From assembly GCF_988243305.1 (NCBI RefSeq), contig NZ_OZ547136.1: a stretch of DNA of 64,000 bases. One strand, 5' to 3'. Under the pieces are notes generated by a model. That model was not told the DNA's origin and did not search any database. It was given only the letters and a program-made list of their open reading frames with translations. Below are positions 35,686-38,600 of this stretch, piece by piece. The translations under genes and the position numbers were made by a program. The stretch's first letter is position 1. Every line of letters starts with the position of its first letter.

Positions 35686-38600
35686 ATGGACGTCAGTCGC
35701 AGACAATTTTTTAAAATCTGCGCGGGCGGTATGGCTGGAACAACGGTAGCGGCATTGGGCTTTGCCCCGAAGCAAGCACTGGCTCAGGCGCGAAACTATA
35801 AATTATTACGCGCGAAAGAGATCCGTAACACCTGCACATACTGTTCCGTAGGTTGCGGGCTATTGATGTATAGCCTGGGTGATGGCGCGAAAAACGCCAG
35901 AGAAGCGATTTATCACATTGAAGGTGACCCGGATCATCCGGTAAGCCGTGGTGCGCTGTGCCCGAAAGGGGCCGGTTTGCTGGATTACGTCAACAGCGAA
36001 AACCGTCTGCGCTACCCGGAATATCGTGCGCCAGGTTCTGACAAATGGCAGCGCATTAGCTGGGATGAAGCATTCTCCCGTATTGCCAAGCTGATGAAAG
36101 CTGACCGTGACGCTAACTTTATTGAAAAGAACGAGCAGGGCGTAACGGTAAACCGTTGGCTTTCTACCGGTATGCTGTGTGCCTCCGGTGCCAGCAACGA
36201 AACCGGGATGCTGACCCAGAAATTTGCCCGCTCCCTTGGGATGCTGGCGGTAGACAACCAGGCGCGCGTCTGACACGGACCAACGGTAGCAAGTCTTGCT
36301 CCAACATTTGGTCGCGGTGCGATGACCAACCACTGGGTGGATATCAAAAACGCTAACGTCGTAATGGTAATGGGCGGTAACGCTGCTGAAGCGCATCCCG
36401 TCGGTTTCCGCTGGGCGATGGAAGCGAAAAACAACAACGATGCAACCTTGATCGTTGTCGATCCCCGTTTTACGCGTACCGCTTCTGTAGCGGATATTTA
36501 CGCACCTATTCGTTCCGGTACGGACATTACGTTCCTGTCTGGCGTTTTGCGCTACCTGATCGAAAACAACAAAATCAATGCCGAATACGTTAAGCATTAC
36601 ACCAATGCCAGCCTGCTGGTGCGTGATGATTTTGCTTTCGAAGACGGTCTGTTCAGCGGCTACGACGCTGAAAAACGTGAATACGATAAGTCGTCCTGGA
36701 ACTATCAGTTCGATGAAAACGGCTATGCGAAACGCGATGAAACACTGACTCATCCGCGCTGTGTGTGGAACCTGCTGAAAGCGCACGTTTCCCGCTACAC
36801 GCCGGACGTTGTTGAAAACATCTGTGGTACGCCAAAAGCCGACTTCCTGAAAGTGTGTGAAGTGCTGGCCTCCACCAGCGCACCGGATCGCACAACCACC
36901 TTCCTGTACGCGCTGGGCTGGACGCAGCACACCGTGGGTGCGCAGAACATCCGTACTATGGCGATGATCCAGTTACTGCTCGGTAACATGGGTATGGCCG
37001 GTGGCGGCGTGAACGCATTGCGTGGTCACTCCAACATTCAGGGCCTGACCGACTTAGGCCTGCTCTCTACCAGCCTGCCGGGTTATCTGACGCTGCCGTC
37101 AGAAAAACAGGTTGATTTGCAGTCGTATCTGGAAGCGAACACGCCGAAAGCGACGCTGGCTGATCAGGTGAACTACTGGAGCAACTATCCGAAGTTCTTC
37201 GTTAGCCTGATGAAATCTTTCTATGGCGATGCCGCGCAGAAAGAAAACAACTGGGGCTACGACTGGCTGCCGAAGTGGGACCAGACCTACGACGTCATCA
37301 AGTATTTCAACATGATGGACGAAGGCAAAGTCACCGGTTATTTCTGCCAGGGCTTTAACCCGGTTGCGTCCTTCCCGGACAAAAACAAAGTGGTGAGCTG
37401 TCTGAGCAAACTGAAGTACATGGTGGTTATCGATCCGCTGGTGACTGAAACCTCAACCTTCTGGCAGAACCACGGCGAGTCGAACGATGTCGATCCGGCG
37501 TCTATTCAGACTGAAGTATTCCGTCTGCCTTCGACCTGCTTTGCTGAAGAAGATGGTTCTATCGCTAACTCCGGTCGCTGGTTGCAGTGGCACTGGAAAG
37601 GTCAGGACGCGCCGGGCGAAGCGCGTAACGACGGCGAAATTCTGGCGGGTATCTACCATCATCTGCGCGAGCTGTACCAGGCCGAAGGTGGTAAAGGCGT
37701 AGAACCGCTGATGAAGATGAGCTGGAACTACAAGCAGCCGCACGAACCGCAATCTGACGAAGTAGCTAAAGAGAACAACGGCTACGCGCTGGAAGATCTC
37801 TATGATGCCAATGGCGTGCTGATTGCGAAGAAAGGTCAGTTGCTGAGTAGCTTTGCGCATCTGCGTGATGACGGTACAACCGCATCTTCTTGCTGGATCT
37901 ACACCGGTAGCTGGACAGAGCAGGGCAACCAGATGGCTAACCGCGATAACTCCGACCCGTCCGGTCTGGGGAATACGCTGGGATGGGCCTGGGCGTGGCC
38001 GCTCAACCGTCGCGTACTCTACAACCGTGCTTCGGCGGATATCAACGGTAAACCGTGGGATCCGAAACGGATGCTGATCCAGTGGAACGGCAGCAAGTGG
38101 ACGGGTAACGATATTCCGGACTTCGGCAATGCCGCACCGGGTACGCCAACCGGGCCGTTTATCATGCAGCCGGAAGGGATGGGACGCCTGTTTGCCATCA
38201 ACAAAATGGCGGAAGGTCCGTTCCCGGAGCACTACGAGCCAATTGAAACGCCGCTGGGCACTAACCCGCTGCATCCGAACGTGGTGTCTAACCCGGTTGT
38301 TCGTCTGTATGAACAAGACGCGCTGCGGATGGGTAAAAAAGAGCAGTTCCCGTATGTGGGTACGACCTATCGTCTGACCGAGCACTTCCACACCTGGACC
38401 AAGCACGCGTTGCTCAACGCAATTGCTCAGCCGGAACAGTTTGTGGAAATCAGCGAAACGCTGGCGGCGGCGAAAGGCATCGCCAATGGCGACCGTGTCA
38501 CCGTATCCAGCAAGCGTGGCTTTATCCGCGCGGTGGCTGTGGTAACGCGCCGTCTGAAGCCGCTGAATGTAAACGGTCAGCAGGTTGAAACGGTGGGTAT

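Follow-up and report, generated by a model that had tools for sequence, protein, structure and literature searches.

The in-frame UGA at codon 196 of an Escherichia coli fdnG gene is followed by a SECIS element identical to that of strain K-12

The reading of UGA as selenocysteine in fdnG is a classic case of bacterial recoding, described in 1991. The incorporation of selenium at the UGA of K-12 fdnG was shown experimentally by Berg et al. (1991), as cited in PMC13188914, in which the general mechanism of selenocysteine insertion is also presented; the efficiency of recoding and the competition with release factor 2 (RF2) are the subject of PMC4513850. For the fdhF gene, a minimal SECIS has been delimited, in which U17 and G23 are the sites contacted by SelB, and synonymous mutations breaking the apical stem or changing G23 abolish the read-through (both reviewed in PMC8659212). 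No open-access paper dissecting the SECIS of fdnG itself was found, and the mechanistic statements made below therefore rest on the work on fdhF (PMC8659212, PMC13188914, PMC4513850). As the recoding of the fdnG UGA was described in 1991, the case presented here brings no new knowledge of the phenomenon, and its practical value lies in the annotation: one selenoprotein of 1015 residues with a translation exception at 36271-36273, versus naive fragments of 195 and 803 aa.

The analysed DNA, referred to below as the window, was a stretch of 64,000 nucleotides of contig NZ_OZ547136.1 (RefSeq assembly GCF_988243305.1). The list of open reading frames contained two pieces on the + strand, 35686..36273 (195 aa) and 36322..38733 (803 aa), in agreement with the first-pass annotation, according to which fdnG was divided at a TGA in the ORF track and both parts belonged to one frame. 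Since both ORF starts equal 1 modulo 3, the two pieces indeed have a common frame, and the translation of 35686-38733 in a single frame ruled out the alternative of two different frames. This translation revealed 1016 codons with codon 196 as the sole internal stop (...DNQARV-stop-HGPTVASLAPTFGRGAM...), and all 819 codons located 3' of the TGA were open. The gene and the codon in question are as follows.

35686..38733, + strand: fdnG, alpha subunit of the nitrate-inducible formate dehydrogenase-N (single-frame translation, TIGR01553, K-12 identity, 1KQF)
36271..36273, + strand: in-frame TGA, putative selenocysteine codon Sec196 (K-12 fdnG and fdoG, X196 of 1KQF)

The gene was accordingly treated as one selenoprotein CDS of 1015 residues, with the UGA as codon 196 predicted to encode Sec. 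The predicted peptide across this codon reads ...ARV-U-HGPTVASLAPTFGR, and the N-terminus carries the twin-arginine motif SRRQFFK. The warning that such a gene is easily misannotated was justified for a plain ORF caller, but not for RefSeq/PGAP, in which the matching stretch is already a single 3,048-nt CDS named fdnG.

The alignment with TIGR01553, the NCBIfam equivalog of FdnG, placed the first piece at profile positions 1-194 and the second one at positions 196-1009, so that exactly one position of the profile remained for the TGA codon. The part encoded after the TGA scored 1,316.7 bits alone and the part encoded before it 280.7 bits, with a cut-off of 814.2. In the crystal structure of FDH-N (1KQF), searched with a query carrying Cys at position 196, chain A contains a non-standard residue, printed as X, at position 196, which aligned with the TGA. 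The earlier assignment of this in-frame TGA as a selenocysteine UGA is supported by these alignments. They also bear on the arrangement of two separate genes, i.e. a product of 195 aa ending at the TGA and a protein starting at ATG 36322, which would take advantage of the fact that this ATG lies in frame, 48 nt 3' of the TGA at 36271-36273. The codons between the TGA and the ATG (HGPTVASLAPTFGRGA) form a conserved active-site segment aligning with the FdnG profile, K-12 FdnG and 1KQF, the Met specified by the ATG is an internal residue in the motif GRGAMTNHW, and the solved protein 1KQF is a single chain across the TGA point, which leaves the two-gene arrangement with a negligible probability.

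The identity of the gene was evaluated by a comparison with the two paralogues of K-12. The product displayed 99.4% identity with the K-12 FdnG protein (1,009 of 1,015 residues) and 76.9% with K-12 FdoG, and it was 100% identical with the WP_115424710-type FdnG of E. coli NZ_CP062824. The genes encoding the two remaining subunits and a putative terminator were located directly downstream.

38746..39630, + strand: fdnH, iron-sulfur beta subunit, same operon (TIGR01582, 482 bits with a cut-off of 334.7; RefSeq agrees)
39623..40276, + strand: fdnI, cytochrome b gamma subunit (NF007558, 486 bits with a cut-off of 339; annotation agrees)
40297..40326, + strand: intrinsic-terminator-like hairpin at the end of the fdnGHI operon (stem of 13 pairs, then a T run)

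The fdnH and fdnI genes overlap by 8 nt. The order of genes was as in E. coli, with yddG and a gene for an ompC-like porin upstream and yddM, adhP and maeA downstream, and the part of the window between 15412 and 58800 was collinear with an E. coli chromosome at 98.6% identity, with no rearrangement. The only circumstance speaking for the paralogue fdoG (formate dehydrogenase-O) in place of fdnG was the SECIS, which is identical in both genes and thus unable to separate them when taken alone. The difference between 99.4% and 76.9% protein identity, the neighborhood of yddG, fdnH, fdnI, yddM and adhP rather than fdoHI-fdhE and the gamma subunit, which scored above the FdnI cut-off but below the cut-off of the FdoI equivalog NF007924 (270 bits versus 341), all argue against fdoG, and such an assignment is hardly conceivable. 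On the higher identity to FdnG than to FdoG, the fdnHI partners and the synteny of the fdn locus, the gene at 35686-38733 is identified as fdnG, the name given to it by the first-pass annotation and by RefSeq.

The region following the TGA was described in the first-pass annotation as able to form a SECIS hairpin at 36271-36320. A search against Rfam revealed a match to SECIS_3 (RF01989) with 84.3 bits (gathering score 63; E = 1.8e-19, or 1.4e-18 for the window as a whole), which covered model positions 1-59 of 59 and was the only Rfam match of gathering level within the 64 kb. The score was equal to those of K-12 fdnG and fdoG, whereas on the sister family SECIS_2 the element reached 28.8 bits with a gathering score of 70. 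Model positions 4-6 corresponded to the TGA at 36271-36273, i.e. codon 196 of fdnG. The earlier coordinates were thus accurate, the Rfam match being slightly wider. The folding of 36271-36320 gave a minimum free energy (MFE) structure with one hairpin (36273-36318) of -14.6 kcal/mol. The element and its parts are listed below.

36268..36326, + strand: bacterial SECIS in the full Rfam SECIS_3 extent (RF01989, 84.3 bits; same sequence as in K-12 fdnG and fdoG)
36273..36284, + strand: lower SECIS stem, 5' arm, pairing register ambiguous (MFE partner 36308-36318)
36285..36302, + strand: apical stem-loop GGU-AGCAA-GUC-UUGCU-CC, putative SelB-binding core (folding, 77 orthologues, likeness to fdhF)
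36308..36318, + strand: lower SECIS stem, 3' arm (folding, pairing in orthologues)

The apical stem-loop starts at G15 (36285, numbered from the U of the UGA), 11 nt past the UGA. U17 (36287) is bulged and was unpaired in both the MFE and the consensus structures, and the loop opens with G23 (36293) and U24 (36294). The 11-nt offset, the bulged U17 and the loop G23/U24 are the features of the minimal SECIS of the fdhF type (PMC8659212), and a comparison with the SECIS elements of fdnG, fdoG and fdhF, suggested as a check in the first-pass annotation, accordingly showed a sequence identical to K-12 fdnG and fdoG, with U17, G23 and U24 placed as in fdhF. Two variants of the apical part are available in fdnG, one with five pairs above the bulge and a GUC loop, the other with four pairs and a 5-nt AGUCU loop.

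The structure was also compared with the constraints used by bSECISearch (PMC13188914), which require 3-9 nt in the loop with a G near its start, 4-16 bp in the upper stem, 16-37 nt from the UGA to the loop and an MFE of at most -7.5 kcal/mol. The fdnG element possesses a 3-nt GUC loop and 5 + 2 = 7 upper-stem pairs around the bulged U, with G23 as the first base of the loop. The spacing is 19 nt (positions 4-22), and the MFE of 36271-36320, -14.6 kcal/mol, is within the limit, with a z of only -1.03 versus shuffles.

The pairing of the lower stem was less clear. With the lower stem in the register of the Rfam consensus, this sequence had -7.2 kcal/mol and A-G and A-C oppositions, versus -14.6 kcal/mol for the MFE register. 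Across the orthologues, the two registers were paired in 87.3% and 83.6% of cells, neither of them being clearly better, and several lower-stem pairs were broken in many orthologues. This ambiguity has no effect on the conclusion because the lower stem is reportedly dispensable for recoding (PMC8659212).

The ability to form a hairpin was weak evidence when taken alone. Of 200 shuffles of 36271-36320, 25 were at least as stable as the native sequence (z = -1.03), which is not significant, so the folding check proposed in the first-pass annotation produced the expected hairpin at 36273-36318, though one that did not stand out in energy. For a hairpin which is short, coding and GC-balanced, the folding energy is uninformative, and the analysis therefore relied on the covariance model and on comparative data. 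The combination of U17, G23, U24 and seven of seven apical pairs was found for one of the 2,371 TGA triplets present on both strands of the window, and this was the TGA of fdnG. One other site emerged from this crude scan, a TGA at 20879, which had six of the seven pairs and no Rfam support, and it was taken as a chance occurrence.

Orthologues were searched for with a degenerate DNA pattern for R-V-UGA-H-G-P-T-V-A, which yielded 120 loci; these belong to Gamma-, Beta- and Alphaproteobacteria and to a small number of other phyla. No other in-frame stop was found in the 120 loci from 30 codons upstream to 50 codons downstream of the TGA. The conservation of this codon bears on the possibility that fdnG is a pseudogene, with a TGA due to a sequencing error or an inactivating nonsense mutation and no translation beyond it, as the breaking of the gene at the TGA by a plain ORF caller may suggest. 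The TGA occurs in the same motif in all 120 loci from many genera and is shared as codon 196 by K-12 fdnG and fdoG. The stretch of 80 nt around it (36256-36335) was found in 5,425 of 5,426 complete E. coli genomes, usually twice in each (fdnG and fdoG), and 5,367 of the 5,433 records with a match reached at least 99% identity. Together with the open codons after the TGA, the FdnG equivalog score of the part which they encode and the intact single CDS in RefSeq, these data make a pseudogene very improbable.

The alignment of orthologues consisted of 77 distinct Sec-type 65-mers without gaps, from which one chance match from Streptomyces was excluded. About half of the columns of the 5' arm were fixed by the search pattern, so the invariance of those columns is uninformative. 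G23 and U24, neither of which was constrained by the pattern, were invariant in 77 of 77 sequences. The apical helix was paired in 99.4% of cells. Two pairs of the alignment were never broken in the 77 sequences in spite of changes in their bases: 21-33 (GC in 61, AU in 12 and GU in 4) and 24-30 (AU in 56, CG in 16 and GC in 5). When the 3' partners were slid by one to three columns, the pairing of the whole structure decreased from 92.6% to 26-49%.

The covarying columns were the third positions of Val, Ala, Ala and Leu codons, i.e. synonymous ones, so protein coding does not explain the compensatory changes. A control set was obtained with the pattern in which TGY replaced TGA and comprised 18 metagenome sequences, a small sample from other clades. 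These Cys-type sequences encode a near-identical peptide, CHGPTVA[AG]LA..., and their apical helix was paired in 62.7% of cells (a value slightly reduced by one chance match kept in the set), versus 99.4% in the Sec type. The G-U dinucleotide of the loop was missing in 15 of the 18, where CCC, CGC or CTC was typical.

Synonymous conservation was examined in 29 loci selected by the identity of their flanks only, as a profile from loci selected by identity within the SECIS would be circular. The fraction of identical codons was 0.963 within codons -1 to +18 and 0.526 beyond them. In the comparison of fdnG with K-12 fdoG, in which the nucleotide identity was 74.8% and 60.7% of codons for the same residue were identical, the longest identical run had 71 nt (36268-36338) and coincided with the SECIS, whereas the next longest had 28 nt. 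The exact 65-mer of the window was present in 22 loci from several genera of Enterobacterales, the flanks of which were 71-96% identical, with means of 78% upstream and 82% downstream.

These results bear on the view that the hairpin has no role of its own at the RNA level, being a by-product of the constraint to encode HGPTVASLAPTFGRG, and that the UGA is read in another way, e.g. by near-cognate suppression. A strongly conserved peptide does fix many bases, and the folding energy was no better than that of the shuffles. Such a by-product does not account for synonymous covarying columns with pairs that were never broken, for the loss of the pairing and of the G-U in Cys-type homologues with nearly the same peptide, for the excess of identical codons inside the element or for the 84.3 bits of the covariance model, and there is very little chance that it explains the hairpin. 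Judged from the codon comparison, the SECIS stretch is under purifying selection at the RNA level. An RNA signal inside a CDS is marked here by an island of synonymous conservation with clear bounds and by compensatory changes in third positions, and the Cys-type homologues show neither.

Synonymous sites are frozen over about 60 nt (codons -1 to +18) in fdnG, fdoG and many genera of Enterobacterales, which is more than the approximately 17 nt reportedly needed by the SelB-binding hairpin. This could be explained by an additional constraint, such as an extended structure hiding the UGA from RF2 or tuning the pausing of the ribosome, or by repeated gene conversion involving the two paralogues, but explanations of this kind are unlikely. 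The frozen stretch has the extent of the Rfam model and is thus probably simply the full natural SECIS.

Taken together, 35686-38733 is almost certainly E. coli fdnG with the UGA codon 196 recoded as selenocysteine under the SECIS at 36268-36326, and no result spoke against this reading. In the proposed mechanism, recoding would be directed by the SECIS hairpin lying inside the CDS directly 3' of the UGA. The elongation factor SelB, expected to carry GTP and Sec-tRNA(Sec), would use its C-terminal domains to bind the apical stem-loop at 36285-36302 with its bulged U17 and loop G23/U24. The approaching ribosome would unwind the lower stem, and once the UGA occupies the A site, the tethered SelB would deliver Sec-tRNA(Sec) in competition with RF2. 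The resulting Sec196 would coordinate the active-site molybdenum of formate dehydrogenase-N. When selenium or the sel machinery is lacking, translation would stop at the UGA and a fragment of 195 residues would be formed. The binding of SelB and the actual insertion of selenocysteine at this locus are expected from the literature and from the identity with the K-12 element. No tRNA gene was detected in the 64 kb, and selA, selB, selC and selD also lie outside the window, so the presence of the sel genes and tRNA(Sec) in the source genome is presumed from E. coli in general: selB, with selA annotated alongside, was found in 5,425 of 5,426 complete E. coli genomes.

Among the described systems, the closest one is K-12 fdnG (b1474), which agrees in all 66 nt around and downstream of the TGA and has the same SECIS_3 score of 84.3 bits, the same codon number 196, the same fdnGHI operon and the same flanking genes. 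The two genes differ only by strain-level polymorphisms, which affect 56 of 3,048 nt and 6 of 1,015 residues, none of them in the element. By this identity of sequence, the element of the window is the Sec196 codon with the SECIS already known from E. coli fdnG. In E. coli fdoG (b3894), the TGA is likewise codon 196, and the SECIS_3 family and the 84.3-bit score are the same, but fdoG is a separate gene (76.9% protein and 74.8% nucleotide identity) with its own locus, fdoGHI-fdhE. The SECIS of fdhF (SECIS_2, RF01988) resembles that of fdnG in a hairpin located directly after the UGA and an upper stem-loop beginning 11 nt from it. Both elements have the G15-G16/C-C base, the bulged U17 and the loop G23 and U24 at equal distances from the UGA. 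The element of fdhF matches SECIS_2 with 87.1 bits and not SECIS_3, to which fdnG and fdoG belong. Its stem differs as well, with a 4-nt GGUC loop above UGCA/UGCA in place of the GUC loop and five pairs of fdnG. The host proteins are also distinct: the element of fdhF serves Sec140 of the cytoplasmic FDH-H, whereas that of fdnG is assigned to Sec196 of the periplasmic FDH-N.

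The fdnG region (35400-38800) was compared with E. coli genome records, of which 5,434 gave a match. Identity of at least 99% was found for a single record, NZ_CP062824 (99.6%), and 5,409 other records matched at 95-99%. Since just one record was so closely related at this region, the source seems to belong to an E. coli lineage that has been sequenced less often.

NZ_CP062824, the best match for the fdn region, does not carry the Vgr/RHS accessory segment located at 4082-14944 and has another Vgr/RHS module at that place. The following features were recognized within the segment:

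5652-7616, vgrG
7632-8573, DUF2169 gene
8566-9699, ORF with a PAAR-like toxin domain
9696-10175, DUF4279 gene
10433-11569, ISAs1-type DDE transposase
12088-14166, 692-aa ORF
14159-14674, 171-aa ORF overlapping the preceding one

Direct copies of the 5' terminal part of the ISAs1-type element, with the region of its start codon, occur three times in the window (79-95% identity) and flank the accessory modules:

5055-5208, first copy
10289-10755, second copy
14945-15411, third copy, running into a truncated transposase ORF (15089-15640)

The 692-aa and 171-aa ORFs had no match in Pfam, NCBIfam or PADLOC. When 5,426 complete E. coli genomes were searched for the 3-kb stretch encoding them, just 19 contained it with a coverage of at least 80%; in these it is annotated as 'peptidase M23' and hypothetical proteins and adjoins Vgr fragments. 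The two ORFs may constitute an orphan pair, a type VI effector with its immunity protein.

In the window, the porin region upstream of fdnG holds two features:

31783-33048, minus strand, 421-aa ORF adjoining the porin gene
33212-34312, minus strand, intact porin gene of the OmpC subfamily (495.6 bits, cut-off 484)

The annotation of NZ_CP062824 places a gene for a leucine-rich-repeat protein, together with fragments of that gene, in the corresponding region.

Apart from the selenocysteine codon of fdnG, only one TGA in the window, at 20879, combines U17, G23 and U24 (the bulged and loop bases of the SECIS apical hairpin) with apical-type pairing, in this case 6 of 7 pairs. Rfam gave no support for this site and it is most likely a chance match. 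The convergent fdnI and yddM genes are separated by a hairpin of 13 pairs that is flanked by T runs on either side (40261-40339) and looks like a bidirectional terminator. This hairpin also explains why the Rfam models STnc320, STnc240, SdsR and TarB gave matches below threshold in the window.

Upstream of fdnG, an imperfect palindrome, TTGAGgtagGTCAA, was read from the sequence at 35553-35566, about 120 nt 5' of the start codon. A sigma-70 scan of the plus strand around this position revealed no promoter-like site. The palindrome resembles the FNR consensus, TTGAT-N4-ATCAA, and is a candidate FNR-like site, which would fit the anaerobic induction of fdnGHI.
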